A DNA stretch of 64,000 nucleotides from Eledone cirrhosa (taxonomy: Eukaryota), in the NCBI GenBank assembly GCA_964016885.1, contig OZ024744.1, positions 9,114,001-9,178,000 of the forward strand, written 5' to 3'. Within the stretch, counting starts at the first letter, position 1. Each line of letters begins with the position of its first letter. A program made the position numbers and the translations under genes. Under the pieces are notes generated by a model. That model was not told the DNA's origin and ran no database searches. It saw only the letters and a program-made list of their open reading frames with translations. Below, one piece after another: positions 1 through 64,000 of this stretch.

Positions 1-3000
1 CAACAACAACACCGGCACCAATGTCTACAACAACAACAACAGCGGCACCAATGTCTACAACAACAACAACAGCGGCACCAATGTCTACAACAACAACAAC
101 ACAGGCACCAATGTCTACAACAACAACAACACAGGCACCAATGTCTACAACAACAACAACAACAGCGGCACCAATGTCTACAACAACAACAACAGCGGCA
201 CCAATGTCTACAACAACAACAACAACAACAGCGGCACCAATGTCTACAACAACAACAACACCGGCACCAATGTCTACAACAACAACAACAGCGGCACCAA
301 TGTCTACAACAACAACAACAACACCGGCACCAATGTCTACAACAACAACAACAACAGCGGCACCAATGTCTACAACAACAACAACAACAGCGGCACCAAT
401 GTCTACAACAACAACAACAGCGGCACCAATGTCTACACCAACAACAACAACAACAACAACAGCGGCACCAATGTCTACAACAACAACAACAGCGGCACCA
501 ATGTCTACAACAACAACAACAACAGCGGCACCAATGTCTACAACAACAACAACAGCGGCACCAACGTCTACAACAACAACAACAGCGGCACCAATGTCTA
601 CAACAACAACAACAGCGGCACCAATGTCTACAACAACAACAACACCGGCACCAATGTCTACAACAACAGCAACAACAGCGGCACCAATGTCTACAACAAC
701 AACAACAACAGCGGCACCAACGTCTACAACAACAACAACAGCGGCACCAATGTCTACAACAACAACAACAACACCGGCACCAATTTCTACAACAACAACA
801 ACAGCGGCACCAATGTCTACAACAACAACAACAGCGGCACCAATGTCTACAACAACAACAACACCGGCACCAATGTCTACAACAACAACAACAGCGGCAC
901 CAATGTCTACAACAACAACAACAGCGGCACCAATGTCTACAACAACAACAACAACAGCGGCACCAATGTCTACAACAACAACAACAACAACGGCACCAAT
1001 GTCTACAACAACAACAGCGGCACCAATGTCTACAACAACAACAACAGCGGCACCAATGTCTACAACAACAGCAACAACAGCGGCACCAGTGTCTACAACA
1101 ACAACAGCGGCACCAATGTCTACAACAACAACAACACCGGCACCAATGTCTACAACAACAACAACAACAGCGGCACCAATGTCTACAACAACAACAACAG
1201 CGGCACCAATGTCTACAACAACAACAACAGCGGCACCAATGTCTACAACAACAACAACAGCGGCACCAATGTCTACAACAACAACAACAGCGGCACCAAT
1301 GTCTACAACAACAACAACACCGGCACCAATGTCTACAACAACAACAACAACAGCGGCACCAATGTCTACAACAACAACAACAGCGGCACCAATGTCTACA
1401 ACAACAACAACACCGGCACCAATGTCTACAACAACAACAACAGCGGCACCAATGTCTACAACAACAACAACAGCGGCACCAATGTCTACAACAACAACAA
1501 CAGCGGCACCAATGTCTACAACAACAACACCGGCACCAATGTCTACAACAACAACAACAGCGGCACTAATGTCTACAACAACAACAACAACAGCGGCACC
1601 AATGTCTACAACAACAACACGGGCACCAATGTCTACAACAACAACAACAGCGGCACCAATGTCTACAACAACAACAAAACCGGCACCAATGTCTACAACA
1701 ACAACAACAGCGGCACCAATGTCTACAACAACAACAACACCGGCACCAATGTCTACAACAACAACAACAGCGGCACCAATGTCTACAACAACAACAACAG
1801 CGGCACCAATGTCTACAACAACAACAACACAGGCACCAATGTCTACAACAACAACAACACAGGCACCAATGTCTACAACAACAACAACAACAGCGGCACC
1901 AATGTCTACAACAACAACAACAACAGCGGCACCAATGTCTACAACAACAACAACACCGGCACCAATGTCTACAACAACAACAACAGCGGCACCAATGTCT
2001 ACAACAACAACAACAACACCGGCACCAATGTCTACAACAACAACAACAACAGCGGCACCAATGTCTACAACAACAACAACAACAGCGGCACCAATGTCTA
2101 CAACAACAACAACAGCGGCACCAATGTCTACAACAACAACAACAATAGCGGCACCAATGTCTACAACAACAACAACAGCGGCACCAATGTCTACAACAAC
2201 AACAACAACAGCGGCACCAATGTCTACAACAACAACAACAGCGGCACCAACGTCTACAACAACAACAACAGCGGCACCAATGTCTACAACAACAACAACA
2301 GCTGCACCAATGTCTACAACAACAACAACACCGGCACCAATGTCTACAACAACAGCAACAACAGCGGCACCAATGTCTACAACAACAACAACAGCGGCAC
2401 CAATGTCTACAACAACAACAACAGCGGCACCAATGTCTACAACAACAACAACACAGGCACCAATGTCTACAACAACAACAACACCGGCACCAATGTCTAC
2501 AACAACAACATCAGCGGCACCAATGTCTACAACAACAACAACACCGGCACCAATGTCTACAACAACAACATCAGCGGCACCAATGTCTACAACAACAACA
2601 ACACCGGCACCAATATCTACAACAACAACAACAGCGGCACCAATGTCTACAACAACAACAACAGCGGCACCAATGTCTACAACAACAACACCGGCACCAA
2701 TGTCTACAACAACAACAACAGCGGCACCAATGTCTACAACAACAACATCAGCGGCACCAATGTCTACAACAACAACATCAGCGGCACCAATGTCTACAAC
2801 AACAACAACAGCGGCACCAATGTCTACAACAACAACAACACCGGCACCAATGTCTACAACAACAACATCAGCGGCACCAATGTCTACAACAACAACAACA
2901 GCGGCACCAATGTCTACAACAACAACAACACCGGCACCAATATCTACAACAACAACAACAGCGGCACCAATGTCTACAACAACAACAACAGCGGCACCAA

Positions 3001-4411
3001 TGTCTACAACAACAACAACACCGGCACCAATGTCTACAACAACAACATCAGCGGCACCAATGTCTACAACAACAACAACACCGGCACCAATATCTACAAC
3101 AACAACAACAGCGGCACCAATGTCTACAACAACAACAACAGCGGCACCAATGTCTACAACAACAACAACACCGGCACCAATGTCTACAACAACAACATCA
3201 GCGGCACCAATGTCTACAACAACAACAACAACACCGGCACCAATGTCTACAACAACAACATCAGCGGCACCAATGTCTACAACAACAACAACACCGGCAC
3301 CAATGTCTACAACAACAACAACAGCGGCACCAATGTCTACAACAACAACAACACCGGCACCAATGTCTACAACAACAACATCAGCGGCACCAATGTCTAC
3401 AACAACAACAACAGCGGCACCAATGTCTACAACAACAACAACACCGGCACCAATATCTACAACAACAACAACAGCGGCACCAATGTCTACAACAACAACA
3501 ACAGCGGCACCAATGTCTACAACAACAACAACAGCGGCACCAATGTCTACAACAACAACAACACCGGTACCAATGTCTACAACAACAACATCAGCGGCAC
3601 CAATGTCTACAACAACAACAACAATAACAGCGGCACCAATGTCTACAACAACAACAACAACAGCGGCACCAATGTCTACAACAACAACAACACCGGCACC
3701 AATATCTACAACAACAACAACAGTGGCACCAATGTCTACAACAACAACAACAGCGGCACCAATGTCTACAACAACAACACCGGCACCAATGTCTACAACA
3801 ACAACAACAGTGGCACCAATGTCTACAACAACAACAACAGCGGCACCAATGTCTACAACAACAACAACAGCGGCACGAATGTCTACAACAACAACAACAA
3901 CTCCGGCACCAATATCTACAACAACAACAACAACAGCGGCACCAATGTCTACAACAACAACAACAGCGGCACCAATGTCTACAACAACAACAACAACAAC
4001 AACACCGGCACCAATGTCTACAACAACAACAACAACAACAACACCGGCACCAATGTCTACAACAACAACAACAGCGGCACCAATGTCTACAACAACAACA
4101 ACAACAACAACACCGGCACCAATGTCTACAACAACAACAACACCGGCACCAATGTCTACAACAACAACAACAGCGGCACCAATGTCTACAACAACAACAA
4201 CAACAGCGGCACCAATGTCTACAACAACAACAACAACAGCGGCACCAATGTCTACAACAACAACAACAACAGCGGCACCAATGTCTACAACAACAACAAC
4301 AACACTGGCACCAATGTCTACAACAACAGCAACAACAGCGGCACCAATGTCTACAACAACAACAACAACACCGGCACCAATGTCTACAACAACAACAACA
4401 ACACCGGCACC
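1..4411 (+). repeat. Satellite array A: ~30-bp monomer (ACA)n-GCG/CCG-GCA-CCA-ATG-TCT, roughly 140 monomers, truncated by the window start
   Basis: Directly visible tandem repeat. Monomer length varies in 3-bp steps through the ACA run. It ends at ...accggcacc|agtgccagc, where unique ORF1 sequence begins. Confidence 0.99.
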
Positions 4412-6215
4412 AGTGCCAGCACCAACGGGCCGAGCGGCGCGGAAGGTGGTAACAGCGACAACACCAACAAGCCGAACAGCGCAGAAGGTGGTAATAGCGA
4501 GAGCACCAACAAAACGAACAGCACAGAGAGTAATAGTAGCGACAGCAGCAGCACCAACAAGGCCAACAGCACAGAGGGTAACCACGACACAGGGGAGAAC
4601 GACAACAGCAATAGCAGCAGCAACACCAACAAGAACAACAACAGTGACAACACCAACAAGAACACCTTCGCTGCTGTGGCAGCGGCTAAAAGGAGACCAT
4701 GCTACAGCATCGACTTAACCAACAGAGAGGAAAAGTTGGCCCAGGCCTGGAAAATCATAAATCAAGAGCAGACCTGGGCAAACTTAACTGTCCCGGCAGA
4801 AGCCATTGAGGCAGTGGAAAAAAGAACGGTGCATTTCAGATGCATCTCAGTAGAGACAAAGAGGGCAGCGATAATCGCCCAAGCTGATATAGAAGCCGCA
4901 CTGAAATACATCAGAGAGGACACAGACTTCATAGAGAGGGGCAGGCAATACGGCACCGTTTCGGTGCTGTTCAAGTCTGAAGCCCTCGCTGTGAAGCATT
5001 CAATGACCCCTTGCAAAACCAGCAAGGTCATAATGTACCCCTCCCACATGGGAAAACGAATAGCACGTGTGCGCATTCCCAGGATTCCACCAGGACTTGA
5101 TATGTGGTGGCTCCTGGGTTGCGTAATCGTGGAAGGAACGGATACAGTCCCGGTAGAGGCAACGAGAACTGCCAGGGACGACTGGTCCGGGGTTGATCTG
5201 GAGATACTGCTCCAAATCAGACCCGAAAACGTAAAAGCAATCCCGGACCACATCCGCCTCCAAAACGGGAGGGTGTTGCATATAATGACTGAGGGCAAAA
5301 GGCCGCATTGTTTCCTTTTGTGGGGAAACGACACACTTGCGAGCCTTCTGCCCTCAACTGCCGAAAAGCGCAAGGGGTCGAAAGATTCCACTGCTGGCGA
5401 CGCCGGCACAAGGACCACCAGCAACACCGTCAACAATGGAACCACCAAAATTGCACACCCAGGGGGGAAACGAGGAAAGCTCTCCCATTCCCCCTCCCCC
5501 CCCCCAAAAAAAAATACACACACGAACAAGAACATAAACACTCACTCAGACACAAACACGCTCACAGCCACAGACCCCTCATCCTCCAGCAGTGAAGATG
5601 AGGGAAAACCAAAGTCCCCCAAAATACAAAAAAAAAAAACACAAAAAAAAAAGAAATCCACAAAGCACAAACACCCCCACAAAAAAAAATACACACACCA
5701 CCCACACAAACATTTTCCCCACAGCATCACCAACACAACCACCAAAATCCCCCAAACGCAAACAAGCTAAACAGACACAAGAACAAATAGACACACAAAC
5801 ATCAGAAACTACAGACACCCCACCCACAACAAACGCAGACACAATAGAAACAACACTAACAAAGCTATCACCACCACAATCACACGAACAAATAAAACCC
5901 GAGCAACAAAACATTAAAAACTTCGTGCTTGCCAGAAGGGCCAACAAGGAATTGATGGCCCATGTAGCACGAAGCACAAACATCGAAAAAGAGGGAGAAA
6001 CATTTGAAGCGAGCACATTTCGCGTACCAGATAATTTGCTTCTGATGCGAATGTCGCTCGCTTCATACAAAGAAATTCGAAAGAGCTTTCCTCGGGATGT
6101 GGGAACCCCGAACGTAAAACCCACTTCAAGACTATTAAAGGGGTTCCCAAAAGAAACCCCACAAACCATGGAGGTCGAACCACCCGACCTTCACAAGACC
6201 CCGGAAGGTAAGTAA
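2..6215 (+). pseudogene. LINE ORF1 (gag-like, CCHC zinc knuckle), frameshifted; N-terminus is the Asn-rich satellite frame
   Basis: The frame starting at position 2 has no stop that I can find through the array and continues into ...NTNKNTFAAVAAAKRRPCYSIDL...TEGKRPHCFL. Removing one T from TTTT (5316-5319) restores CFLCGETTHLRAFC (CX2CX4HX4C). Further shifts lie in C/A homopolymers at about 5490-5690. The last segment (ORF 5592-6215 frame) stops 29 bp before ORF2. Confidence 0.8.
4430..4590 (+). repeat. Degenerate ~42-bp coding repeats (3-4 copies) in the ORF1 linker
   Basis: In the ORF1 frame they read PSGAEGGNSDNTNK / PNSAEGGNSESTNK / TNSTESNSSDSSSTNK / ANSTEGNHD. Confidence 0.8.
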
Positions 6216-6244: not shown

Positions 6245-9200
6245 ATGGCCATAAGAGTAGGAAGTTTAAATGTTCGTGGCCTGGGGTCGCCCTGGAAGCA
6301 AGGTCACTTGTTCAACGACCTCAGGTCACTAGGAATGGATGTAATTGCCATCAGCGAGACCAGAATTTCCGACACACGCGCACTGGCGCCGATTTTCGAC
6401 GATTATCAGATCTTTGCATCTGTTAGTCGGCCGGGAATGGGAGGTGGAGTGGCTGTGCTGTTTAGGAAATGTCTGGATCTCGAGGTAAGGTCAATCTTCC
6501 GGGATCCTGACGGAAAGTTGGTGGTCCTGGACGTGAGCAATAGCGAAGGTGGTGCCTTTAGACTGGTGGCCGTCTACGCCCCTACTGGGGCCGGTCGGCC
6601 GGACTTCTTTAGGCGCCTGGAAAACTTTCTGCTTACGTCTCGCCCTTTACTGTTAATAGGGGATTGGAATGGCATCTTAGAAGCACGCTGGGATTGTGTG
6701 GGAGTATCTGATAGGAGCGGGGGGTGCAAAAGCCTCAAGTACCTGATCAGCCAGTTTCAACTGTCTGACAGGTACCGACTAGATTTCCCTAATGCGCAGG
6801 TATGGACCTGGACCAATCGCATAGGGTCATCTAGATCGTACATAGATAGGATTTTCATTAGGAAAAGAGATAGAAATAGTGTAGGATGTCCACATTTTAA
6901 AACGGTTGCCTATTCAGATCACAAGCTTGTGATCTGTATGGTCGACCTAGATAAGACACGTAGGTTAGGACCTAGCTACTGGAAGCTAAACATGTCGTTT
7001 CCGGCACGTAAAGCTTACAGGGACCGGGTCAACAACTTAGTTAAGCAAAAGTTGACAGGGGGGGTTGTCAACAACAGGTGGTGGGGGGCTCTCAAAAGAG
7101 AGATTAGAGCAACCTCGATAGGATTTAGCAAAGAAGTAGCAATAGAGAAAAATAGAAAGGAGGAAGGGCTGATAGCTAAGTTAGACGAGGCTATTTGTAG
7201 TGGCATTGCAACAGACGTGCTAGCGGCGAGAATGGCACTAGACCATTTCTTCAATGCGAAACACGAAGGTTGCATTGTCAGAGCTAAGGCGCGTGCTCTG
7301 AGGAACGAGGGAACCAAAGCTGCCCGATGGGCTCGCTTTGCAGAGACGCAGCGTGGAAATAAAACCACAATTCGGTCTTTGACGGATCGAGATGGACACG
7401 AACTGAGCGATTCCAAGCAGATGTGTGAGGCCTTTCGCCAGCACTTTGCTCGATTGTTCGGGAGGATGGGTGAGTCGGAGACGGCGGCGGACTTCAGTCC
7501 CTACCTCGACGGCTTGCCACGCCTCTCGACGGCCGACGCTGAGCGCTGCGAAGAGCCGATAACATCAGTCGAAATTCAGGACGCCCTTGTCGGCTGCTCG
7601 AGTCGCAAGTCACCCGGTTTGGATGGTCTGCCCTACGAGCTTTACGTAAATATGCCAGACTTGTTCTCCGATCTCCTCGAAGCGCTCTACTGCAACTGGC
7701 AGCAGAACGGGAGCATTCCCAGTTCTGTGAGCCGTGGCGTAGTGACGCTGATAAGGAAATACGAGAACAAGAGGGACACACTAGATAATTTCAGGCCCAT
7801 AACCCTGCTCAACACAGAGTTTAAGATTTTGGCCAAGGTGTTAGCGAAAAGGTTGGCGCTTGTCGTCAAAGATTTGGTTGGGGAGGCGCAAACTTGCGCA
7901 ATCCCGACCAGGTCCATACACGACAACCTCCACCTCATGCGATACATCATAGAGAGGGTTGGGTGCAAACCTGGCTTCGGTGGGGCTCTGATCAATTTAG
8001 ATCAATCGAAAGCATTCGATAGGGTTGACCATCGGTACTTGGAGGCTGTCCTCGAGGCGGCTGGCTTCGGCCCCGTCTTCAGAAGCTGGATCGCTGCAAT
8101 GTACAGCGGCATCTGCTCGGTGGTCAAAGTTAATGGCCACCTCTCGGAACCGTTTCAGATCTCTCGATCGGTCCGTCAAGGGTGCCCTCTCTCCTCACTT
8201 CTGTACGTATTGACTCTTGAGCCTCTACTGCGGAAGCTGGAGTTGTTGCAGGGCATCCCGCTCGAACCGGGACGTAGAAAGGCTGCGTCCGCTTATGCGG
8301 ACGACATCACCGTGATGGTGTCGGACACCTCGGAAATCGAGGTGATCCGCACCCATTTGGAGGAATATGAAAGGTTGACGGGAGCAAAACTTAACCCGGA
8401 AAAGTCGGTGGGCTTGCAGCTCGGCACCTGGAGAGGCAAGTCCATGCTGTCCAACAGCGCCGTTGGGCGCTGGACAGACGGACCGGTAAAGTTGCTCGGG
8501 GTTTGGTTCGGACCAGACCTCCAGGTGGATAAGAATTGGGACGAGGTGACGAGCAGGATAGCCAACCTCACCCAGAAATGGGCTGAGAGAAAGCTATCAC
8601 TGAAAGGGCGGGCGGAGGTGGCGAACGCGTACATCGCGTCCGTCATCTACTACCGCCTGACCGTCGTGCCTTTCCCCCGTCCACGCCTCGCCAATTTGGA
8701 ACGGCTCCTTTTCAAATTTTTGTGGAGGGGACGGGTCCCGTTGGTGAGGCGGTCCATCTGCTGCCAGCACCCTCTTCGTGGAGGGCTGGGCATGCCGTGG
8801 CTAATGATGCGCAGACATGCGCTGAGGCTGCGACATCTCCAGATATTTTGCCTAAACAGTGAACAGGTGTGGTCGCCGTTTGTTAGGCGGGCCTTTCCGC
8901 AGCTCATCTCTTTGACTGAGCTGCAGTCCTGGGTCAAGAAGAGACCGAGACTGGGCGACTGGCATCTGGAATGTTGCCAGGCGCTCACTGCACTCTGCAA
9001 GGTGGGCAATGCGGTCAGTGGAACTTCCACTCAAGATTTCTATAGAGGATTAGTGGAGGGCAAGTACGATGACGTACTAGGAGAGGCTCTAGGCGTCAAC
9101 GAAGTAAAACTGACCAGTATGTTCCGGAGGACTTTCGAGCCGAGGACGATGGATAACTTCCAGAAATCCCTCGCTTGGCATTGCTACCGGGGGGCGCTGC

Positions 9201-9661
9201 CGGTTCGGGATAAACTCTACAGGCATGGAAGTGCTGTCAGACGAACCTGCCCGAGATGCGCGCAGAGCGACGAAACCGTTCTGCACGCACTCGTCCAGTG
9301 TCCGTGCATTGCTGACTTGTGGGGTTATGTCGAACAGCTATTGTCGCGTGTAGAACGGATCCGGCTATCGTCCGAGTCCATAGTGAAGATTGACCCGCCG
9401 CCTTCTTTTGGTCAGGAAGGGCAGGCAATTTTCCTCTGCCTGGTGGCAGTAGCGAAAGAGGTTGCATGGTGGACCAGGTTGAAAGGACTGAAGACAGACA
9501 CTTTTCTCTTCGGCCAATCCCTCATCAACTTCAAGTTTCACTTGGAAAGGAAGGTGAGGGTGGAGAGAGAAGTGCTGCCCCCCAGTACATTTACTGAAAG
9601 GTGGGTGAATGTGGCGATAATGGCCCGCGTGAGTGGGCCTACTCTGATCATGCGCCTGTAG
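6245..9661 (+). CDS. LINE ORF2: APE endonuclease + reverse transcriptase + C-terminal zinc finger, 1138 aa, uninterrupted
   Basis: Endonuclease motifs GSLNVRGL, ISETR, AVYAP, IGDWN, TWTN, SYIDRIF, SDH. RT motifs KSPGLDGLP, FRPITLLNTEFKILAK, LDQSKAFDRV, VRQGCPLS, YADD. C-terminal CPRC-x8-H-x4-C. Confidence 0.97.
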   Translation: MAIRVGSLNVRGLGSPWKQGHLFNDLRSLGMDVIAISETRISDTRALAPIFDDYQIFASVSRPGMGGGVAVLFRKCLDLEVRSIFRDPDGKLVVLDVSNSEGGAFRLVAVYAPTGAGRPDFFRRLENFLLTSRPLLLIGDWNGILEARWDCVGVSDRSGGCKSLKYLISQFQLSDRYRLDFPNAQVWTWTNRIGSSRSYIDRIFIRKRDRNSVGCPHFKTVAYSDHKLVICMVDLDKTRRLGPSYWKLNMSFPARKAYRDRVNNLVKQKLTGGVVNNRWWGALKREIRATSIGFSKEVAIEKNRKEEGLIAKLDEAICSGIATDVLAARMALDHFFNAKHEGCIVRAKARALRNEGTKAARWARFAETQRGNKTTIRSLTDRDGHELSDSKQMCEAFRQHFARLFGRMGESETAADFSPYLDGLPRLSTADAERCEEPITSVEIQDALVGCSSRKSPGLDGLPYELYVNMPDLFSDLLEALYCNWQQNGSIPSSVSRGVVTLIRKYENKRDTLDNFRPITLLNTEFKILAKVLAKRLALVVKDLVGEAQTCAIPTRSIHDNLHLMRYIIERVGCKPGFGGALINLDQSKAFDRVDHRYLEAVLEAAGFGPVFRSWIAAMYSGICSVVKVNGHLSEPFQISRSVRQGCPLSSLLYVLTLEPLLRKLELLQGIPLEPGRRKAASAYADDITVMVSDTSEIEVIRTHLEEYERLTGAKLNPEKSVGLQLGTWRGKSMLSNSAVGRWTDGPVKLLGVWFGPDLQVDKNWDEVTSRIANLTQKWAERKLSLKGRAEVANAYIASVIYYRLTVVPFPRPRLANLERLLFKFLWRGRVPLVRRSICCQHPLRGGLGMPWLMMRRHALRLRHLQIFCLNSEQVWSPFVRRAFPQLISLTELQSWVKKRPRLGDWHLECCQALTALCKVGNAVSGTSTQDFYRGLVEGKYDDVLGEALGVNEVKLTSMFRRTFEPRTMDNFQKSLAWHCYRGALPVRDKLYRHGSAVRRTCPRCAQSDETVLHALVQCPCIADLWGYVEQLLSRVERIRLSSESIVKIDPPPSFGQEGQAIFLCLVAVAKEVAWWTRLKGLKTDTFLFGQSLINFKFHLERKVRVEREVLPPSTFTERWVNVAIMARVSGPTLIMRL

Positions 9662-9901
9662 GCTGGTGAATTCGAGAAGGAGAGGGGTGCCCTTCCCGGG
9701 TGCCCTAGGAGCGTCGGGTGGCTCAGGACTGGTGGGGTGCTTGAGTCAACCCTGGGTGGTGATCCCTCTTATTGGGGAACTTTCATTGTTGTATTTTTAT
9801 TGTTATTTTGTTTTTTTGTTATTTATACTTACTCGATCTCTATGTAAACCCCCACTGTCCCTGTCTATTGTGTTGTCCCCTATATGTCGGCCCTTGTGGC
9901 C

Positions 9902-9930
9902 AATAAATGAAATCATTATTATTATTATTA
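9902..9930 (+). terminator. LINE polyadenylation signal and (ATT)n tail
   Basis: AATAAA at 9902-9907, about 240 bp after the ORF2 stop, then (ATT)5 at 9915-9929, where composition switches to AT-rich low complexity. Confidence 0.7.
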
Positions 9931-10079
9931 ATATTTTTATTATTTTATTTTTATTATAAATTTTGCCGTCTTGTATCACTGTCAACTTAATAATATTTTT
10001 TATATTTTTTTTATTTTCTCAATCCTTATTTTTTATTTGCTTATTTGTATGTGACGGCCTACTATGATTATTTATTCTT

Positions 10080-10238
10080 ATTTATGTGTGTGCACATGTA
10101 TCCTTTTATATGTGAGTACGTATGCATGTGTGTATATATGTGTGTATGTATGTGTGTGTGTATGTATGTATGTGTATGTATATATATGTATATATATGCA
10201 TATATATATGTATGTGTGTGCATATATATATATATATT

Positions 10239-10287
<49 letters not shown>

Positions 10288-10416
10288 GTGTGTGTTGGTG
10301 TGTTTATGTATGGATATATATACATATGTATTTGTGTGTGTCTCTGTGTCTCTGTGTATATATGTATGTGTATATATGCGTGTATATATGTATGTATATA
10401 TGTATGTATATATGTA
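10080..10416. repeat. Compound (TA)/(TG)/(TATG) microsatellite
   Basis: Directly visible. It accounts for the spurious YIYI/CVCV ORFs. Confidence 0.95.
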
Positions 10417-10594
10417 TGAAAAACATGAGAAGAAAGAAGAATACTGCGTGGTTGCACATGGGTTACATATGAAAAAATTAGTCCCTCGTCAGCGATTTGC
10501 CAACCATCATTGATAGTTCATCGCATTAAAAATCATATACCTCAGGTTGGTGCGAGCAATAACTAAAAAAAGCTATTGGGACAAGTAAATCGCG
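10417..10594. repeat. Dispersed ~175-bp microsatellite-anchored repeat, copy 1 (family unknown)
   Basis: Colinear similarity to 13632-13805 (shared gaagaatactgc, ggttgcacatgg, agtccctc, catcgcattaaaaatcatatacctca). Both copies directly follow a TA/TG microsatellite. Confidence 0.85.
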
Positions 10595-10721
10595 ATTTAC
10601 TTGTCCCAATAGCTTTTTTTAGTTATTGCTCGCACCAACCTGAGGTATATGATTTTTAATGCGATGAACTATCAATGATGGTTGGCAAATCGCTGACGAG
10701 GGACTAATTTTTTCATATGTA
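10464..10721. repeat. Perfect 258-bp palindrome (129-bp arms, no spacer)
   Basis: Centre gtaaatCG|CGatttac at 10592/10593. The arms read as exact reverse complements out to tacatatgaaaaaattagtccc / gggactaattttttcatatgta. Confidence 0.97.
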
Positions 10722-10800
10722 TGTATATATGTATATATGTATATATGTGTGTATATGTGAGTGTGTGTGCGTGTGTGCGTGTGTGTGTACGTGTGTGTTG
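10722..10800. repeat. (TA)/(TG) microsatellite
   Basis: Directly visible. Confidence 0.9.
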
Positions 10801-11018
10801 TTATATATCCTTATTTATTATTCTTCCCCTTTTTTCCCCCGGCCTCACTTTCATATCTGTTATACTTTTGTTTTTCATATCCACTGTGATAAAGACACCA
10901 GGATTTTTTCATTCTGGTGAATGAGGCAATTTTGGTTGCTTTCAAGAAAGCACTGGTAAATGAAATAATTATCTTTGGTGCGTTATGGTCCACCTGGTTC
11001 CTTACCACATTTCCTTCG

Positions 11019-11020
<2 letters not shown>

Positions 11021-11080
<60 letters not shown>
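11021..11080. repeat. (TA)n(GA)n microsatellite
   Basis: Directly visible. Confidence 0.95.
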
Positions 11081-11081
<1 letters not shown>

Positions 11082-11189
11082 TATGAAAATAGGGAGAAAA
11101 AGACGATTATTATTCCTATTATTTTTTTCTCTTTTTTCTGGGTTAGAAAATGTTTAATAATAATCGTCTTTTTCTCCCTATTTTCATAT
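11081..11189. repeat. 34-bp perfect inverted repeat with 41-bp spacer, between microsatellites
   Basis: atatgaaaatagggagaaaaagacgattattatt (11081-11114) and its exact reverse complement at 11156-11189. Confidence 0.93.
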
Positions 11190-11380
11190 ATATATATATT
11201 TCAACTTGTGTGCTCCTTCTCCATATTTTATAATTATGATATATATATACATATATATATATATCTAAACTATAATAAAGTAAGGAGCACGGGACTGTTT
11301 ATGGTTTACAATTATTTTATCCCGTTAGTAAAATAAGTTGGATTACTTTGAATAAATAATGAATGAATATTACATAACTT

Positions 11381-11741
11381 ATCTACTAAATTTCGTGGCT
11401 GTTGATTAAATATATTTTGTTTATTTAAAGATTCACTTCTTTAAAATGTATGAAATATCAACACTTTTGGTGGCTCTCGTTTAAATAAACATACTAATTT
11501 TCTGTCACTAATTTTCTCCTAATGCAGTTTATATATAATATCGTCTTTTTTAATGTATCATGGATTACGTTACTTATTACATAAAACAGTGTAACGCAGT
11601 CTTCGTTCAATTTCTACGTATATTGTCAATTACGATTTTATTTGATGTAACATATCTACATGTATATATACTTGCGTATAATATCAATATACACACCACA
11701 CATGCTAGCAGAAAACCAACCGTGGGATGGTTTTCTGCTAG
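11381..11741 (+). mobile_element. Probable non-autonomous Helitron relic, plus strand
   Basis: 11381-11465 resembles the reverse complement of about 13030-13105 in the neighbouring Helitron (ttatttaaagattcacttctttaaaat vs ttatttaaatattcacttctttaaaat). It ends in an imperfect hairpin followed by CTAG|T at 11738-11742, the canonical Helitron 3' end. Confidence 0.55.
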
Positions 11742-12154
11742 TAGATATAAATATATATATATGGGATAACAAATTATCGTTATAGGTAATCCAGTTATAG
11801 GTAATTCGCTTTATCATAACTTCCAATTTATTAATTTATTAATTTAACCCAAACATATATGTAAATATTTAGGTATACCGGCATTTTATCTTTTCAGGAA
11901 TCCCCCCAACACTCCAGTGCAAAGATACCGCACGCCCTCTCAAGTCGGCGAGGTGGGCAGGCGGGGCGAGTTAACGTGCTCTGATGTTGGGTTTGTATAG
12001 TTTTTACGATTCCCCAGTTCAGCAGCCAGTACGTTAAAGAAAATTGATAGTTACAACAATAAAGGCTAAACAGAGAACACATTTTTTAACAAACAATAAT
12101 TTCTATAATTTGTACAACCATAATGGAAATTCCAAGTAACAGAAAATATTCAAG

Positions 12155-13559: not shown

Positions 13560-13563
<4 letters not shown>

Positions 13564-13631
<68 letters not shown>
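13564..13631. repeat. (TA)n(TG)n microsatellite
   Basis: Directly visible. Confidence 0.96.
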
Positions 13632-53100: not shown

Positions 53101-56100
53101 CAATGTCTACAACAACATCAACACCGGCACCAATGTCTACAACAACAACAACAGCGGCACCAATGTCTACAACAACAACAACAGCGGCACCAATGTCTAC
53201 AACAACAACAACAGCGGCACCAATGTCTACAACAACAACAACAACAGCGGCACCAATGTCTACAACAACAACAACAACACCGGCACCAATTTCTACAACA
53301 ACAACAACAGCGGCACCAATGTCTACAACAACAACAACAGCGGCACCAATGTCTACAACAACAACAACACCGGCACCAATGTCTACAACAACAACAACAG
53401 CGGCACCAATGTCTACAACAACAACAACAGCGGCACCAATGTCTACAACAACAACAACAACAGCGGCACCAATGTCTACAACAACAACAACAACAACGGC
53501 ACCAATGTATACAACAACAACAACAGCGGCACCAATGTCTACAACAACAACAACAACACCGGCACCAATGTCTACAACAACAACAACAGCGGCACCAATG
53601 TCTACAACAACAGCAACAACAGCGGCACCAGTGTCTACAACAACAACAGCGGCACCAATGTCTACAACAACAACAACACCGGCACCAATGTCTACAACAA
53701 CAACAACAACAGCGGCACCAATGTCTACAACAACAACAACAGCGGCACCAATGTCTACAACAACAACAACAGCGGCACCAATGTCTACAACAACAACAAC
53801 AGCGGCACCAATGTCTACAACAACAACAACAGCGGCACCAATGTCTACAACAACAACAACACCGGCACCAATGTCTACAACAACAACAACAACAGCGGCA
53901 CCAATGTCTACAACAACAACAACAGCGGCACCAATGTCTACAACAACAACAACATCGGCACCAATGTCTACAACAACAACAACAGCGGCACCAATGTCTA
54001 CAACAACAACAACAGCGGCACCAATGTCTACAACAACAACAACAGCGGCACCAATGTCTACAACAACAACACCGGCACCAATGTCTACAACAACAACAAC
54101 AGCGGCACTAATGTCTACAACAACAACAACAACAGCGGCACCAATGTCTACAACAACAACACGGGCACCAATGTCTACAACAACAACAAAACCGGTACCA
54201 ATGTCTACAACAACAACAACAGCGGCACCAATGTCTACAACAACAACAACACCGGCACCAATGTCTACAACAACAACAACAGCGGCACCAATGTCTACAA
54301 CAACAACAACAGCGGCACCAATGTCTACAACAACAACAACACAGGCACCAATGTCTACAACAACAACAACACAGGCACCAATGTCTACAACAACAACAAC
54401 AACAGCGGCACCAATGTCTACAACAACAACAACAGCGGCACCAATGTCTACAACAACAACAACAACAGCGGCACCAATGTCTACAACAACAACAACACCG
54501 GCACCAATGTCTACAACAACAACAACAGCGGCACCAATGTCTACAACAACAACAACAACACCGGCACCAATGTCTACAACAACAACAACAACAGCGGCAC
54601 CAATGTCTACAACAACAACAACAACAGCGGCACCAATGTCTACAACAACAACAACAGCGGCACCAATGTCTACAACAACAACAACAACAGCGGCACCAAT
54701 GTCTACAACAACAACAACAGCGGCACCAATGTCTACAACAACAACAACAACAGCGGCACCAATGTCTACAACAACAACAACAGCGGCACCAACGTCTACA
54801 ACAACAACAACAGCGGCACCAATGTCTACAACAACAACAACAGCGGCACCAATGTCTACAACAACAACAACACCGGCACCAATGTCTACAACAACAGCAA
54901 CAACAGCGGCACCAATGTCTACAACAACAACAACAACAGCGGCACCAACGTCTACAACAACAACAACAGCGGCACCAATGTCTACAACAACAACAACACA
55001 GGCACCAATGTCTACAACAACAACAACAACAGCGGCACCAATGTCTACAACAACAACAACAGTGGCACCAATGTCTACAACAACAACAACAGCGGCACCA
55101 ATGTCTACAACAACAACAACAGCGGCACCAATGTCTACAACAACAACAACACAGGCACCAATGTCTACAACAACAACAACACCGGCACCAATGTCTACAA
55201 CAACAACATCAGCGGCACCAATGTCTACAACAACAACAACACCGGCACCAATGTCTACAACAACAACATCAGCGGCACCAATGTCTACAACAACAACAAC
55301 ACCGGCACCAATATCTACAACAACAACAACAGCGGCACCAATGTCTACAACAACAACAACAGCGGCACCAATGTCTACAACAACAACACCGGCACCAATG
55401 TCTACAACAACAACAACAGCGGCACCAATGTCTACAACAACAACATCAGCGGCACCAATGTCTACAACAACAACATCAGCGGCACCAATGTCTACAACAA
55501 CAACAACAGCGGCACCAATGTCTACAACAACAACAACACCGGCACCAATGTCTACAACAACAACAACACCGGCACCAATGTCTACAACAACAACATCAGC
55601 GGCACCAATGTCTACAACAACAACAACACCGGCACCAATGTCTACAACAACAACAACAGCGGCACCAATGTCTACAACAACAACAACACCGGCACCAATG
55701 TCTACAACAACAACATCAGCGGCACCAATGTCTACAACAACAACAACAGCGGCACCAATGTCTACAACAACAACAACACCGGCACCAATATCTACAACAA
55801 CAACAACAGCGGCACCAATGTCTACAACAACAACAACAGCGGCACCAATGTCTACAACAACAACAACAGCGGCACCAATGTCTACAACAACAACAACACC
55901 GGCACCAATGTCTACAACAACAACATCAGCGGCACCAATGTCTACAACAACAACAACAGCGGCACCAATGTCTACAACAACAACAACACCGGCACCAATA
56001 TCTACAACAACAACAACAGTGGCACCAATGTCTACAACAACAACAACAGCGGCACCAATGTCTACAACAACAACACCGGCACCAATGTCTACAACAACAA

Positions 56101-59100
56101 CAACAGTGGCACCAATGTCTACAACAACAACAACAGCGGCACCAATGTCTACAACAACAACAACAGCGGCACGAATGTCTACAACAACAACAACAACTCC
56201 GGCACCAATATCTACAACAACAACAACAGCGGCACCAATGTCTACAACAACAACAACAGCGGCACCAATGTCTACAACAACAACAACAACAACAACTCCG
56301 GCACCAATATCTACAACAACAACAACAACAGCGGCACCAATGTCTACAACAACAACAACAGCGGCACCAATGTCTACAACAACAACAACAGCGGCACCAA
56401 TGTCTACAACAACAACAACAGCGGCACCAATGTCTACAACAACAACAACAACAGCGGCACCAATGTCTACAACAACAACAACAACAACAACAGCGGCACC
56501 AATGTCTGCAACAACAACAACAACAGCGGCACCAATGTCTACAACAACAACAACAACAGCGGCACCAATGTCTACAACAACAACAACAACACCGGCACCA
56601 ATGTCTACAACAACAACAACAACAGCGGCACCAATGTCTACAACAACAACAACAACAGCGGCACCAATGTCTACAACAACAACAACAACAACAACAGCGG
56701 CACCAATGTCTACAACAACAACAACAACAGCGGCACCAATGTCTACAACAACAACAATAACAGCGGCACCAATGTCTACAACAACAACAACAGCGGCACC
56801 AATGTCTACAACAACAACAACAACACCGGCACCAATGTCTACAACAACAATAACAACAGCGGCACCAATGTCTACAACAACAACAACAACACCGGCACCA
56901 ATGTCTACAACAACAACAACAGCGGCACCAATGTCTACAACAACAACAACAACAGCGGCACCAATGTCTACAACAACAACAACAACAGCGGCACCAATGT
57001 CTACAACAACAACAACAACAGCGGCACCAATGTCTACAACAACAACAACAACAGCGGCACCAATGTCTACAACAACAACAACACCGGCACCAATGTCTAC
57101 AACAACAACAACAGCGGCACCAATGTCTACAACAACAACAACAGCGGCACCAATGTCTACAACAACAACAACAACAACAACAGCGGCACCAATGTCTACA
57201 ACAACAACAACAACAACAACAGCGGCACCAATGTCTACAACAACAACAATAACAGCGGCACCAATGTCTACAACAACAACAACAGCGGCACCAATGTCTA
57301 CAACAACAACAACAACACCGGCACCAATGTCTACAACAACAATAACAACAGCGGCACCAATGTCTACAACAACAACAACAACACCGGCACCAATGTCTAC
57401 AACAACAACAACAGCGGCACCAATGTCTACAACAACAACAACAGCGGCACCAACGTCTACAACAACAACAACAACAGCGGCACCAATGCCTACAACAACA
57501 ACAACAGCGGCACCAATGTCTACAACAACAACAACAACAGCGGCACCAATGTCTACAACAACAACAACAACAGCGGCACCAATGTCTACAACAACAACAA
57601 CAACAGCGGCACCAATGTCTACAACAACAACAACAACAGCGGCACCAATGTCTACAACAACAACAACAGCGGCACCAATGTCTACAACAACAACAACAAC
57701 ACCGGCACCAATGTCTACAACAACAACAACAACACCGGCACCAATGTCTACAACAACAACAACAGCGGCACCAATGTCTACAACAACAACAACAACAGCG
57801 GCACCAATGTCTACAACAACAACAACAACAACAACAGCGGCACCAATGTCTACAACAACAACAACAACAGCGGCACCAATGTCTACAACAACAACAACAA
57901 CACCGGCACCAATGTCTACAACAACAACAAAAGCGGCACCAATGTCTACAACAACAACAACAACACCGGCACCAATGTCTACAACAACAACAACAACAGC
58001 GGCACCAATGTCTACAACAACAACAACAGCGGCACCAATGTCTACAACAACAACAACAACAGCGGCACCAATGTCTACAACAACAACAACAACAACAACA
58101 GCGGCACCAATGTCTACAACAACAACAACAACACCGGCACCAATGTCTACAACAACAACAACAACAGTGGCACCAATGTCTACAACAACAACAACAGCGG
58201 CACCAATGTCTACAACAACAACAACAACACCGGCACCAATGTCTACAACAACAACAACAACAGCGGCACCAATGTCTACAACAACAACAACAGCGGCACC
58301 AATGTCTACAACAACAACAACAACAGCGGCACCAATGTCTACAACAACAACAACAACAACAACAGCGGCACCAATGTCTACAACAACAACAACAACACCG
58401 GCACCAATGTCTACAACAACAACAACAGCGGCACCAATGTCTACAACAACAACAACAACAGCGGCACCAATGTCTACAACAACAACAACAACAACAGCGG
58501 CACCAATGTCTACAACAACAACAACAACACCGGCACCAATGTCTACAACAACAACAACAGCGGCACCAATGTCTACAACAACAACAACAACACCGGCACC
58601 AATGTCTACAACAACAACAACAGCGGCACCAATGTCTACAACAACAACAACAACAGCGGCACCAATGTCTACAACAACAACAACAACAACAACAGCGGCA
58701 CCAATGTCTACAACAACAACAACAACACCGGCACCAATGTCTACAACAACAACAACAGCGGCACCAATGTCTACAACAACTACAACAACAGCGGCACCAA
58801 TGTCTACAACAACAACAACAACAGCGGCACCAATGTCTACAACAACAACAACAACTCCGGCACCAATGTCTACAACAACAACAGCGGCACCAATGTCTAC
58901 AACAACAACAACAGCGGCACCAATGTCTACAACAACAACAACAGCGGCACCAATGTCTACAACAACAACAACACCGGCACCAATGTCTACAACAACAACA
59001 ACAACACCGGCACCAATGTCTACAACAACAACAACAGCGGCACCAATGTCTACAACAACAACAACACCGGCACCAATGTCTACAACAACAACAGTGGCAC

Positions 59101-62100
59101 CAATGTCTACAACAACAACAACACCGGCACCAATGTCTACAACAACAACAACACCGGCACCAATGTCTACAACAACAACAACAACAGCAGCACCAATGTC
59201 TACAACAACAACAACAGCAGCACCAATGTCTACAACAACAACAACAGCGGCACCAATGTCTACAACAACAACAACAGCGGCACCAATGTCTACAACAACA
59301 ACAACAGCGGCACCAATGTCTACAACAACAACAGCGGCACCAATGTCTACAACAACAACAACAGCGGCACCAATGTCTACAACAACAACAACAGCGGCAC
59401 CAATGTCTACAACAACAACAACAGCGGCACCAATGTCTACAACAACAACAACAGCGGCACCAATGTCTACAACAACAACAACAACACCGGCACCAATGTC
59501 TACAACAACAACAACAGCGGCACCAATGTCTACAACAACAACAACACCGGCACCAATGTCTACAACAACAACAACAGCGGCACCAATGTCTACAACAACA
59601 ACAATAACAGCGACACCAATGTCTACAACAACAACAACAGCGGCACCAATGTCTACAACAACAACAACAACACCGGCACCAATATCTACAACAACAACAA
59701 CAGCGGCACCAATGTCTACAACAACAACAACAGCGGCACCAATGTCTACAACAGCAACAACAGCGGCACCAATGTCTACAACAACAACAACAGCGGCACC
59801 AATGTCTACAACAACAACAACAGCGGCACCAATGTCTACAACAACAACAACAACACCGGCACCAATGTCTACAACAACAACAACAGCGGCACCAATGTCT
59901 ACAACAACAGCAACAACAGCGGCACCAATGTCTACAACAACAACAGCGGCACCAATGTCTACAACAACAACAACAACACCGGCACCAATGTCTACAACAA
60001 CAACAACAGCGGCACCAATGTCTACAACAACAACAACAGCGGCACCAATGTCTACAACAACAACAACAGCGGCACCAATGTCTACAACAACAGCAACAAC
60101 AGCGGCACCAATGCCTACAACAACAACAGCGGCACCAATGTCTACAACAACAACAATAACAGCGGCACCAATGTCTACAACAACAACAACAGCGGCACCA
60201 ATGTCTACAACAACAGCAACAACAGCGGCACCAGTGTCTACAACAACAACAGCGGCACCAATGTCTACAACAACATCAACACCGGCACCAATGTCTACAA
60301 CAACAACAACAGCGGCACCAATGTCTACAACAACAACAACAGCGGCACCAATTTCTACAACAACAACAACAGCGGCACCAATGTCTACAACAACAACAAC
60401 AGCGGCACCAATGTCTACAACAACAACAACACCGGCACCAATGTCTACAACAACAACAACAGCGGCACCAATGTCTACAACAACAACAACAGCGGCACCA
60501 ATGTCTACAACAACAACAACAACAGCGGCACCAATGTCTACAACAACAACAACAACAACGGCACCAATGTCTACAACAACAACAGCGGCACCAATGTCTA
60601 CAACAACAACAACAGCGGCACCAATGTCTACAACAACAGCAACAACAGCGGCACCAGTGTCTACAACAACAACAGCGGCACCAATGTCTACAACAACAAC
60701 AACACCGGCACCAATGTCTACAACAACAACAACAACAGCGGCACCAATGTCTACAACAACAACAACAGCGGCACCAATGTCTACAACAACAACAACAGCG
60801 GCACCAATGTCTACAACAACAACAACAGCGGCACCAATGTCTACAACAACAACAACAGCGGCACCAATGTCTACAACAACAACAACACCGGCACCAATGT
60901 CTACAACAACAACAACAACAGCGGCACCAATGTCTACAACAACAACAACAGCGGCACCAATGTCTACAACAACAACAAAACCGGCACCAATGTCTACAAC
61001 AACAACAACAGCGGCACCAATGTCTACAACAACAACAACAGCGGCACCAATGTCTACAACAACAACAACAGCGGCACCAATGTCTACAACAACAACACCG
61101 GCACCAATGTCTACAACAACAACAGCGGCACTAATGTCTACAACAACAACAACAACAGCGGCACCAATGTCTACAACAACAACACGGGCACCAATGTCTA
61201 CAACAACAACAACAGCGGCACCAATGTCTACAACAACAACAAAACCGGCACCAATGTCTACAACAACAACAACAGCGGCACCAATGTCTACAACAACAAC
61301 AACACCGGCACCAATGTCTACAACAACAACAACAGCGGCACCAATGTCTACAACAACAACAACAGCGGCACCAATGTCTACAACAACAACAACACAGGCA
61401 CCAATGTCTACAACAACAACAACACAGGCACCAATGTCTACAACAACAACAACAACAACAGCGGCACCAATGTCTACAACAACAACAACAGCGGCACCAA
61501 TGTCTACAACAACAACAACAACAACAGCGGCACCAATGTCTACAACAACAACAACACCGGCACCAATGTCTACAACAACAACAACAGCGGCACCAATGTC
61601 TACAACAACAACAACAACACCGGCACCAATGTCTACAACAACAACAACAACAGCGGCACCAATGTCTACAACAACAACAACAACAGCGGCACCAATGTCT
61701 ACAACAACAACAACAGCGGCACCAATGTCTACAACAACAACAACAGCGGCACCAATGTCTACAACAACAACAACAGCGGCACCAATGTCTACAACAACAA
61801 CAACAACAGCGGCACCAATGTCTACAACAACAACAACAGCGGCACCAACGTCTACAACAACAACAACAGCGGCACCAATGTCTACAACAACAACAACAGC
61901 GGCACCAATGTCTACAACAACAACAACACCGGCACCAATGTCTACAACAACAGCAACAACAGCGGCACCAATGTCTACAACAACAACAACAACAGCGGCA
62001 CCAACGTCTACAACAACAACAACAGCGGCACCAATGTCTACAACAACAACAACAACACCGGCACCAATTTCTACAACAACAACAACAGCGGCACCAATGT

Positions 62101-64000
62101 CTACAACAACAACAACAGCGGCACCAATGTCTACAACAACAACAACACCGGCACCAATGTCTACAACAACAACAACAGCGGCACCAATGTCTACAACAAC
62201 AACAACAGCGGCACCAATGTCTACAACAACAACAACAACAGCGGCACCAATGTCTACAACAACAACAACAACAACGGCACCAATGTCTACAACAACAACA
62301 GCGGCACCAATGTCTACAACAACAACAACAGCGGCACCAATGTCTACAACAACAGCAACAACAGCGGCACCAGTGTCTACAACAACAACAGCGGCACCAA
62401 TGTCTACAACAACAACAACACCGGCACCAATGTCTACAACAACAACAACAACAGCGGCACCAATGTCTACAACAACAACAACAGCGGCACCAATGTCTAC
62501 AACAACAACAACAGCGGCACCAATGTCTACAACAACAACAACAGCGGCACCAATGTCTACAACAACAACAACAGCGGCACCAATGTCTACAACAACAACA
62601 ACACCGGCACCAATGTCTACAACAACAACAACAACAGCGGCACCAATGTCTACAACAACAACAACAGCGGCACCAATGTCTACAACAACAACAACACCGG
62701 CACCAATGTCTACAACAACAACAACAGCGGCACCAATGTCTACAACAACAACAACAGCGGCACCAATGTCTACAACAACAACAACAGCGGCACCAATGTC
62801 TACAACAACAACACCGGCACCAATGTCTACAACAACAACAACAGCGGCACTAATGTCTACAACAACAACAACAACAGCGGCACCAATGTCTACAACAACA
62901 ACACGGGCACCAATGTCTACAACAACAACAACAGCGGCACCAATGTCTACAACAACAACAAAACCGGCACCAATGTCTACAACAACAACAACAGCGGCAC
63001 CAATGTCTACAACAACAACAACACCGGCACCAATGTCTACAACAACAACAACAGCGGCACCAATGTCTACAACAACAACAACAGCGGCACCAATGTCTAC
63101 AACAACAACAACACAGGCACCAATGTCTACAACAACAACAACACAGGCACCAATGTCTACAACAACAACAACAACAGCGGCACCAATGTCTACAACAACA
63201 ACAACAACAGCGGCACCAATGTCTACAACAACAACAACACCGGCACCAATGTCTACAACAACAACAACAGCGGCACCAATGTCTACAACAACAACAACAA
63301 CACCGGCACCAATGTCTACAACAACAACAACAACAGCGGCACCAATGTCTACAACAACAACAACAACAGCGGCACCAATGTCTACAACAACAACAACAGC
63401 GGCACCAATGTCTACAACAACAACAACAATAGCGGCACCAATGTCTACAACAACAACAACAGCGGCACCAATGTCTACAACAACAACAACAACAGCGGCA
63501 CCAATGTCTACAACAACAACAACAGCGGCACCAACGTCTACAACAACAACAACAGCGGCACCAATGTCTACAACAACAACAACAGCTGCACCAATGTCTA
63601 CAACAACAACAACACCGGCACCAATGTCTACAACAACAGCAACAACAGCGGCACCAATGTCTACAACAACAACAACAGCGGCACCAATGTCTACAACAAC
63701 AACAACAGCGGCACCAATGTCTACAACAACAACAACACAGGCACCAATGTCTACAACAACAACAACACCGGCACCAATGTCTACAACAACAACATCAGCG
63801 GCACCAATGTCTACAACAACAACAACACCGGCACCAATGTCTACAACAACAACATCAGCGGCACCAATGTCTACAACAACAACAACACCGGCACCAATAT
63901 CTACAACAACAACAACAGCGGCACCAATGTCTACAACAACAACAACAGCGGCACCAATGTCTACAACAACAACACCGGCACCAATGTCTACAACAACAAC
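14141..64000 (+). repeat. Satellite array B: same ~30-bp monomer, ~50 kb, on the order of 1,600 monomers, with kb-scale higher-order duplications; runs off the window end
   Basis: Directly visible. It starts at ...caacatctgt|aatgtctacaac and has the same orientation and frame phase as array A. Confidence 0.99.

Follow-up and report, generated by a model that had tools for sequence, protein, structure and literature searches.

A 30-bp satellite in frame with ORF1 of a LINE, and its near-identical recurrence at a 61.3-kb offset, in Eledone cirrhosa

We analysed a 64,000-nucleotide stretch of an Eledone cirrhosa contig, hereafter the window, in which two arrays of a 30-bp satellite, A and B, flank a LINE and a spacer of host DNA (Table 1). 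The satellite lies in frame with ORF1 of the LINE and is probably derived from it, a point absent from the first-pass annotation of this DNA. The account that we prefer, and to which we give an even chance of being correct, is that a coding minisatellite expanded neutrally within ORF1 of one LINE copy and that a 61-kb block with its host flanks was then tandemly duplicated. The new elements are the in-frame relation of the 30-bp unit to the Asn-rich linker of ORF1, a degenerate unit at the array edge, and array edges that together fit one unit.

Table 1. Features of the window (positions 1 to 64,000)
Feature	Position	Strand	Description
Array A, 3' end of 30-bp satellite	1..4411	+	142 whole monomers, 27-42 bp
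Copied part of A	1..2716	+	0 substitutions, 2 indels vs window end
ORF1 N-terminal Asn/Ser-rich linker	4412..4669	+	~42-bp coding repeats
ORF1 body, octopod LINE gag-like protein	4670..6215	+	N-terminal domain, CCHC knuckle, C-terminal domain
ORF2, 1138 aa, intact	6245..9661	+	APE-type endonuclease, reverse transcriptase, zf-RVT
3' UTR	9662..9957	+	AATAAA-like signal, (ATT)n tail at 9915-9957
Spacer, host DNA	9958..14110	.	AT-rich, TA/TG microsatellites, old element remnants
Perfect 258-bp palindrome	10464..10721	.	129-bp arms, no loop
Decayed Helitron fragment	12253..12835	-	12,494-12,835 matches Helraiser
Degenerate in-frame monomer directly before B	14111..14137	+	17/27 bases
Array B	14141..64000	+	1,610 whole monomers, 49.9 kb, all lengths multiples of 3 bp
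Young internal tandem duplication	45599..54400	+	Period 4,404 bp, 135/139 monomers identical
End of B, copy of 1-2716	61294..64000	+	From alignment

A recurrence of the window start at an offset of 61,284 bp had been proposed earlier, and it is borne out: positions 447-2716 and 61,731-64,000 are identical at 2,270 of 2,270 positions. In a global alignment, no base is substituted between 1-2716 and 61,294-64,000, and the only differences are two changes in AAC-run length (3 bp gained in B, 12 bp gained in A), in agreement with the earlier description of the copies as near-identical, not identical. The match falls into three gap-free blocks with offsets of 61,293 (1-146), 61,296 (147-434) and 61,284 (447-2716); the 61,293 previously assigned to the upstream part holds for the first block and fails for the second, where 61,296 had been overlooked. 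Two of the four sequence variants offered as diagnostic retain that value: acaatagcg occurs twice in the window and gctgca twice in the arrays (four times in the window), each at the pair of positions given for it, and their carrier monomers are private to A and the end of B. The other two, caatttctac (10 occurrences, 9 of them in the arrays) and gcactaat (9 occurrences), recur elsewhere, and thus neither singles out the offset 61,284. The end of B is the nearest relative of A, with 85 of 87 aligned monomers identical. Among the other A paralogues, the longest-scoring (53.2-55.9 kb) reaches 73 of 91, and shorter ones do not exceed 34 of 37. With 2.7 kb and no substitution, the direct copy exceeds the 1 kb and 90% identity used as a criterion for tandem segmental duplication, and it spans the whole interval testable within the window, open at both testable ends. 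Like a tandem segmental duplication or higher-order repeat, it is a direct copy of several kb with >99% identity and a constant offset; of a presumed 61.3 kb, 2.7 kb are seen twice, all of it satellite. The unit sizes proposed earlier sum correctly (51,555 bp of satellite, ~5.5 kb of LINE and ~4.2 kb of spacer). Recent tandem duplication, one of the interpretations then offered, is the best-supported reading, since within the testable interval the match is complete and since the array edges fit one unit.

Array B is long, contiguous and homogeneous (1,610 monomers over 49.9 kb), with divergence greatest at its 5' end. Across both arrays unit lengths range from 24 to 42 bp, all multiples of 3, and 0 of 1,752 monomers break the frame. 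An internal exact copy, 46,845-49,791, recurs at an offset of 4,404 (2,947 bp) and exceeds the exact run at 61,284. The arrays hold 30 listed paralogous blocks of 0.45-6.1 kb, and the non-adjacent copies inside B include one with 36 of 36 monomers identical at offset 5,043. Unit lengths and block duplications show that AAC-run slippage and kb-scale unequal exchange shaped the array.

The frame of the satellite that encodes (NNNNSGTNVY)n, here called the Asn frame, is the ORF1 frame in both arrays. In A it has no stop and continues into ORF1; in B it has no stop from 19,826 onward to the end of the window, five stops being confined to the first 6 kb (14,978-19,823), and there is no in-frame ATG in 14,048-64,000. 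Slippage in a trinucleotide run accounts for the absence of frameshifts, for which we claim no excess over chance. Selection on the open Asn frame was considered and rejected: nonsynonymous changes are seen about as fully as synonymous ones, both for transitions (13 of 14 possible against 7 of 7) and for transversions (21 of 34 against 4 of 6).

By its two ORFs, the domains of ORF2 and its 3' simple-repeat tail, the LINE is classed as an L1-clade element, putatively Tx1-like, the latter from the ORF2 motif DQ.KAFDRV.H, which we take to be Tx1-like. ORF2 contains PF03372, PF00078 and PF13966, each above cut-off, and among solved structures it comes nearest to human L1 ORF2p (E 6e-57; R2 reaches 2e-22), its close sequence matches being nameless entries; three loci in metagenome contigs, at 25-30% identity, were left out of the conclusions. 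ORF1 has 198 relatives at E<=0.001, and those with names are from octopods only. In the closest (P0188, Octopus vulgaris, 71%), DNNNSG and NNNTNV occur within an Asn-rich N-terminus. The CX2CX4HX4C motif is present in four of five aligned relatives, P0188 ending upstream of its position. No Pfam family was found above cut-off for the ORF1 pieces, every ESM Atlas match fell below 0.9 and serves as a lead only, and a search among proteins of 376-2000 aa gave 0 relatives in 3,282 candidates, which is weak evidence. In the window the CCHC knuckle (~5305-5350) is disrupted by a frameshift at ~5316, ORF1 stops at 5535-5537, and the C-terminal domain (5538-6215) lies in another frame. The frameshift and stop, the five array stops and the lack of an in-frame ATG show that the element can no longer act autonomously.

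The spacer is host DNA that contains remnants of old elements. Its palindrome is a fold-back of a ~230-bp element with an 81%-identical copy at 13,572-13,795, and the part of the Helitron fragment at 12,253-12,600, which has no match, presumably belongs to it, as assigned by motif alone. Rfam gave 43 matches over 4400-14,200, none at gathering score and nearly all on palindromes or microsatellites. No second tail was found at the spacer end, so 3' transduction is not indicated, and 9881-10,120 and 13,801-14,145 share no word of 9-14 bases that could be a target-site duplication; according to the available text of PMC4494074, such a duplication is not always produced. Independent insertion of a ~57-kb element, also suggested earlier, is therefore unlikely: with a broken ORF1, no selection on the array and a host spacer carrying a Helitron remnant, this is not a 57-kb active element.

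The relation of the satellite to ORF1 is seen best in the linker. Of its 85 in-frame codons, 47 belong to the monomer's seven-codon set (3/84 and 2/84 in the other frames; 12% in ORF2), and no other 255-nt segment of the LINE-spacer cassette is as array-like: it scores 98, whereas none of 108 others exceeds 80. In codon order it resembles the monomer no more than codon shuffles do (P = 0.40), and the likeness is thus one of composition and frame only. The score of the degenerate unit before B is reached by 0.6% of spacer segments. The first base of B and the last base of A complete one exact monomer, which removal of 4412-14,140 rebuilds; this fits the expectation for an integral number of units bounded by unique DNA on both sides, and insertion into a pre-existing array predicts it equally. 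With nine ORF1 relatives as queries, the search for an ORF1 start or 5' UTR before 14,141 gave 0 matches below E 0.5.

In the mechanism that we propose, the Asn-rich linker of ORF1 in one copy of a young octopod L1-clade (Tx1-like) LINE would have contained a coding unit of 30 bp, and this unit would have been amplified in place by (AAC)n slippage and kb-scale unequal exchange. The 5' end of the element, presumably just before 14,141, and the ORF1 body would thereby have come to enclose ~51.5 kb of neutral satellite. A block of ~61.3 kb (array, LINE and host flanks) would then, very recently, have undergone a DNA-level duplication in head-to-tail order; this step is observed over 2.7 kb and is presumed for the remainder, including spacer and ORF2. 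Whole-block duplication would place a second ORF1 and ORF2 at about 65,696 and 67,529. A second LINE near 65.7 kb is a likely prediction, and it stays one because the block of A leading into ORF1 has paralogues within B, at about 30.8, 43.5 and 55.9 kb, that continue into satellite. We see no sign yet of a function; what is implied is runaway repeat growth.

On this reading, the locus is an extreme case of a known route of satellite birth. The available portions of PMC7004042 and PMC9659126 describe retrotransposon-internal tandem repeats as the origin of Ogre-derived satellites in Lathyrus sativus and of pea PisTR-A, and the likeness lies in a short retroelement-internal array that swells in occasional copies while still flanked by element sequence. 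As described there, however, Ogre and PisTR-A are LTR elements, PisTR-A coming from a 3' UTR, whereas the window holds a LINE with an array that lies in the ORF1 frame and preserves that frame over 50 kb. Among the entries seen in Table 1 of PMC9659126, ORF-derived cases are the gag-related CAA microsatellite of Cereba (Aegilops speltoides), rye E3900 (gag), PROsat and Pvc20 (L1 ORF2) and chicken HinfI (CR1 ORF2), with no LINE ORF1 case. On this partial view of the source, they resemble our satellite in being related to a coding region of a retroelement, and Cereba is likewise CAA/AAC-based and gag-linked; the window differs in that an intact parent ORF2 adjoins a 50-kb array and that the block is apparently duplicated. 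Within titles and abstract openings, most subscription journals lying outside the search, we found no octopus or cephalopod satellite study and no LINE-ORF1-derived satellite described.

For the LINE itself, the accessible parts of PMC5203782 and PMC4494074 give L1-clade/Tx1 elements a CCHC-type ORF1, and Table 1 of PMC13282606, in the extract available, lists 13 families of recently active L1-Tx1 in Octopus vulgaris (421 insertions, 2.29 Mb). The family may already be in the repeat library of that study. As far as these extracts go, the element resembles L1-Tx1 in its two ORFs, APE-RT-zinc ORF2, CCHC ORF1, simple-repeat tail, ~5.5 kb body and octopod relatives, and differs in that neither a target sequence nor a target-site duplication was found and in an ORF1 split by a giant array. 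If our preferred reading is true, a satellite has been caught at birth, with parent, degenerate edge unit, age gradient and fresh duplication in one contig, and the passage from coding minisatellite to satellite DNA to higher-order repeat can be tested directly.

The main rival holds that a 9.7-kb DNA cassette, a 5'-truncated LINE with 4.2 kb of its old flank, entered an (AAC)-rich satellite already in place, by homeology-guided insertion or recombination at the DNA level, and that unequal exchange between the flanking arrays duplicated the cassette. This seems to us somewhat unlikely. It too predicts a second LINE, with similarity upstream of the window stopping at a crossover inside the array. 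The rebuilt monomer, the want of a recognisable LINE 5' end before B, the unequal exchange evidently active in the array and the uninterrupted paralogues of the junction block within B would all suit it. So would a contig of a related sequence from one of the four sequencing runs compared among 24 listed (14 of the 20 runs with family sequence were left out, share <0.5). This depth-6 contig of run X6 (record 17) matches ORF1 at 4411-5038 with three differences and a 6-bp gap and extends another 342 nt upstream, with no alignment to the array there; it departs from the window exactly at the array boundary, and hence no monomer lies beside the junction in that relative's copy. In the same run, array-like contigs raise the first bin to 32.6 against 6.55. 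Against such an insertion, chance or homeology would have to account for both ends being in frame and like the monomer, the spacer end has no second tail to indicate 3' transduction, and the Asn-rich linker is native to the LINE family.

An assembly or haplotype artefact, in which one real cassette was represented twice by two haplotypes joined through the array, is distinctly unlikely. Single HiFi-length reads cannot span an array of this kind, which is at least 49.9 kb long, and the two AAC-run changes in 2.7 kb are what alleles could show. The window nevertheless has no gap (0 N bases in 64 kb), the LINE-spacer-array junctions pass through unique DNA, B needs an ORF1 body of its own under tandem duplication, and the internal 4.4-kb duplication provides equally young, real-looking copies (135/139 monomers).

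More speculative, and quite improbable in our judgement, is an octopod LINE lineage with a frame-preserving coding satellite in ORF1 that grows to tens of kb, and whose ~61-kb blocks, stacked head to tail in many copies as a higher-order repeat, mark an octopus centromere or pericentromere. It is very unlikely that a multi-kb piece simply moved between arrays by gene conversion or ectopic exchange, leaving B as satellite with no LINE at 65.7 kb. Non-adjacent copies do exist in B (36/36 monomers at offset 5,043), and the A-tail paralogues continue into satellite, but the 2.7-kb match is open at both testable ends, and the sole other block longer than 2 kb that comes close to identity is a tandem copy lying next to its counterpart, with an offset equal to its length.

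A functional higher-order unit, with many head-to-tail satellite-LINE units forming a centromeric or telomeric domain or a family that moves with its array, is highly improbable. The near-identical contigs of run X1 have a flat depth of 2,004-2,156 from ORF1 to the 3' UTR (diverged contigs 6.7-15; contig depth is not copy number), without a 5'-truncation slope, and array-like contigs accumulate in the first bin; in the available text of PMC7004042, retrotransposon-derived satellites of Lathyrus expanded mainly at primary constrictions. The window alleles at 4888, 5407 and 5996 are, however, absent from all X1 depth shown (contigs drop rare variants), so the many copies in X1 are not copies of the window's unit. 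Depths in X4 are near 100,000 and may be capped, hence no copy number was derived; we take the Logan cap to be 50,000 per contig. X24 is a RAD-seq run, unusable for copy number. No RNA run is listed among those with family sequence, which says nothing about expression. HeT-A and TART form telomeric head-to-tail retrotransposon arrays, which the predicted same-strand series of LINE units would resemble, yet here the units are separated by 4.2 kb of unrelated host DNA, the ORF1 is a broken one and nothing points to a chromosome end. Four telomere motifs gave 0 matches in the 64-kb window, and the telomere-like architecture raised earlier is not supported.

We give virtually no credence to a mucin-like gene reading (MSTTTTTAAP)n from an ATG at 13,908 in the Thr frame, which has ORFs of 3,329, 908, 2,876 and 1,339 aa: no single-base change of the consensus unit yields a stop, so that long ORFs are expected, and the frame is nonetheless broken by four stops, shows 15 of 15 nonsynonymous transitions, terminates in A at 4718, outside ORF1, and encodes a peptide with four weak matches among 7,999 candidates and no convincing homologue. 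In genome annotation, such arrays yield false mucin-like ORFs of several thousand residues.

The window end repeats the window start at an offset of 61,284 bp, as the first-pass annotation had proposed: from 447 to 2716, every one of the 2,270 positions agrees. Global alignment carries the match back to position 1 without a single substitution; two indels, an additional AAC unit in B and an additional 12 bp in A, set the offsets at 61,293, 61,296 and 61,284 bp in turn. The match thus spans the entire interval testable within the window. In monomer space the end of array B is the closest relative of array A (85/87 monomers identical, versus 73/91 for the longest-scoring other paralogue). The longest exact repeat of the window measures 2,947 bp, lies inside B with an offset of 4,404 and exceeds the start/end exact match. 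Of the four variants put forward as diagnostic, two (acaatagcg and gctgca) are restricted, within the arrays, to A and the end of B; the other two, caatttctac and gcactaat, occur 10 and 9 times and lose that status.

Frame-breaking monomer lengths are absent from both arrays. The Asn frame (NNNNSGTNVY) has no stops in A and continues directly into ORF1; in B its five stops are confined to 14,978-19,823, beyond which it stays open to the window end. In the linker adjoining A, 47/85 in-frame codons belong to the 7-codon set of the unit, compared with 3/84 and 2/84 in the other two frames; codon order there is no closer to the unit than in shuffles (P = 0.40). The 27 bases preceding B align in frame with the unit at 17 positions, a score equalled by 0.6% of spacer windows, and the last base of A and the first of B together complete one exact unit. 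An Asn-rich N-terminus bearing similar motifs is also present in the closest ORF1 relative. Frame, codon set, edge unit, edge phase and this relative combined suggest that the left flank of B and the right flank of A are two sides of one array grown within ORF1, which also supports the predicted second LINE. Two results speak against such growth: a contig of sequencing run X6 (depth 6; direction taken from the contig-end field of the alignment table) runs along ORF1 from 5038 down to 4411, beyond which its further 342 nt fail to align to the array, and neither comparison with ORF1 relatives nor a search for an in-frame ATG revealed a start of ORF1 upstream of B. Two Thr-frame ATGs just before B flank a G run and a TA microsatellite; speculatively, one of them may be the displaced start.

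The best reading, held with about even confidence, is that a coding unit within ORF1 would have expanded in place, and that 61.3 kb would then, very recently, have been duplicated in tandem at the DNA level. It is a good deal less probable that the satellite was there first, that a LINE cassette entered it and that unequal exchange between the arrays on either side then duplicated the cassette; insertion into an existing array would give the same edge phase fit, and both readings predict a second LINE. The assembly very probably carries ORF1 and ORF2 at 65.7-71 kb, and the second LINE copy is probably real tandem DNA, a haplotype or assembly duplication being rather improbable. Since paralogues of the block preceding ORF1 in A (at ~30.8, 43.5 and 55.9 kb) each run on as satellite, that LINE is likely, not certain; a block copy only, with no LINE following B, is unlikely.

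Unit length variation sits in the AAC run. At least 30 block repeats of 0.45-6.1 kb, at 79-100% monomer identity, occur, and the frequency of singleton monomers drops from 18 per 100 at the 5' end of B to 0-5 per 100 past 23 kb. Almost every possible nonsynonymous change is present in the array (13/14 transitions, 21/34 transversions; synonymous, 7/7 and 4/6), with no sign of selection for protein. A functional many-copy domain is very unlikely. The long ORFs of the Thr frame follow from composition, because none of the possible single changes of the unit creates a stop there; a mucin gene is scarcely credible. The four Thr-frame stops in B share one sequence context and are therefore one mutation spread by block duplication.

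Features of the satellite-LINE locus and its spacer
Feature	Position	Size or state	Content
Array A	1-4411	142 whole monomers	30-bp unit, lengths 27-42 bp
Linker	4412-4669		Asn-rich N-terminal part of ORF1
ORF1 body	4670-6215		
ORF2	6245-9661	1,138 aa, intact	endonuclease, RT, zf-RVT domains
(ATT)n tail			between ORF2 and spacer
Spacer	9958-14,110	4.2 kb, AT-rich	Helitron remnant, microsatellites, ~230-bp element x2, palindrome
Palindrome	10464-10721	258 bp, perfect, loopless	fold-back of ~230-bp element
Copy of ~230-bp element	13,572-13,795	81% identical	
Smaller imperfect inverted repeats	11020-11263; 11705-11741; 11421-11464 with 13032-13073	69-86% identity	
ATGs before B	14067-14069; 14097-14099		Thr frame
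Array B	14,141-64,000	1,610 whole monomers	30-bp unit, lengths 24-42 bp
Thr-frame stops	23895; 26640; 35289; 39327		

The best solved relative of ORF2 is human L1 ORF2p. ORF1 is frameshifted within its CCHC knuckle, possibly through an assembly error in the T run there, and its C-terminal domain is in another frame. Among 198 ORF1 relatives, 10 were checked, and the six named ones are all octopod (Octopus vulgaris, O. sinensis, O. bimaculoides, Argonauta hians), which makes an octopod the probable source of the window. The Helitron remnant matches Helraiser in one of two pieces compared (E 5.6e-10). Perfect loopless palindromes are usually unstable; the one in the spacer may be the trace of a recent template switch, perhaps at the breakpoint of the 61-kb duplication, or else an assembly quirk. 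Flank comparison found no target-site duplication for the LINE and, with the broken ORF1 and the host spacer, this disfavours an independent 57-kb retrotransposition.

The origin of satellites from repeats inside retroelements is established: in Lathyrus, LTR elements supplied the short arrays from which 9/11 arose (PMC7004042), and gag-related (Cereba CAA, rye E3900) and LINE ORF2-related cases are also described (PMC9659126; PMC6947457). No LINE ORF1-derived satellite is described in these review passages or in the literature search results, which likewise returned no cephalopod satellite study. For O. vulgaris, 421 recently active L1-Tx1 insertions are reported (PMC13282606); the relevant passages of PMC9115989 concern RTE and Dong elements, with no mention of Tx1. 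The locus resembles a retrotransposon-derived satellite with higher-order duplication, its membership being only partly established; the repeat is real.

Contigs from four of 24 listed sequencing runs were compared with window positions 4350-10,050. In X6, near-identical coverage ends at 5038 and is almost absent to 6068, with ORF2 covered at depth 5-13, reflecting either a copy with a deletion or a gap left by filtering. In X4, depth is near or above 100,000 across the whole LINE body (diverged contigs, 19-34), pointing to a very large recent amplification of the family in the organism labelled B. The four near-identical X1 contigs listed show 5 differences from the window in 1,237 positions, plus one gap. 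Their depth of 2,004-2,156, versus 6.7-15 for the four diverged contigs, suggests some 10^2 mostly full-length copies, contig depth not being copy number. All X1 depth carries a base other than that of the window at 4888, 5407 and 5996; 2,161/2,408 depth in X1 and 100,490/160,220 in X4 lack the extra base at 5316. The window copy is thus, as judged from these contigs, one slightly decayed member, ~0.4% from the X1 main form, and not the amplified form; the 61-kb duplication (0 substitutions in 2.7 kb) would be younger than that divergence. At position 4458, six extra bases relative to the window occur in X1 (1,856/1,862 depth) and X6 (6/6), and in 0/24,969 of X4; copies of the element thus differ by in-frame length changes in the ORF1 linker.
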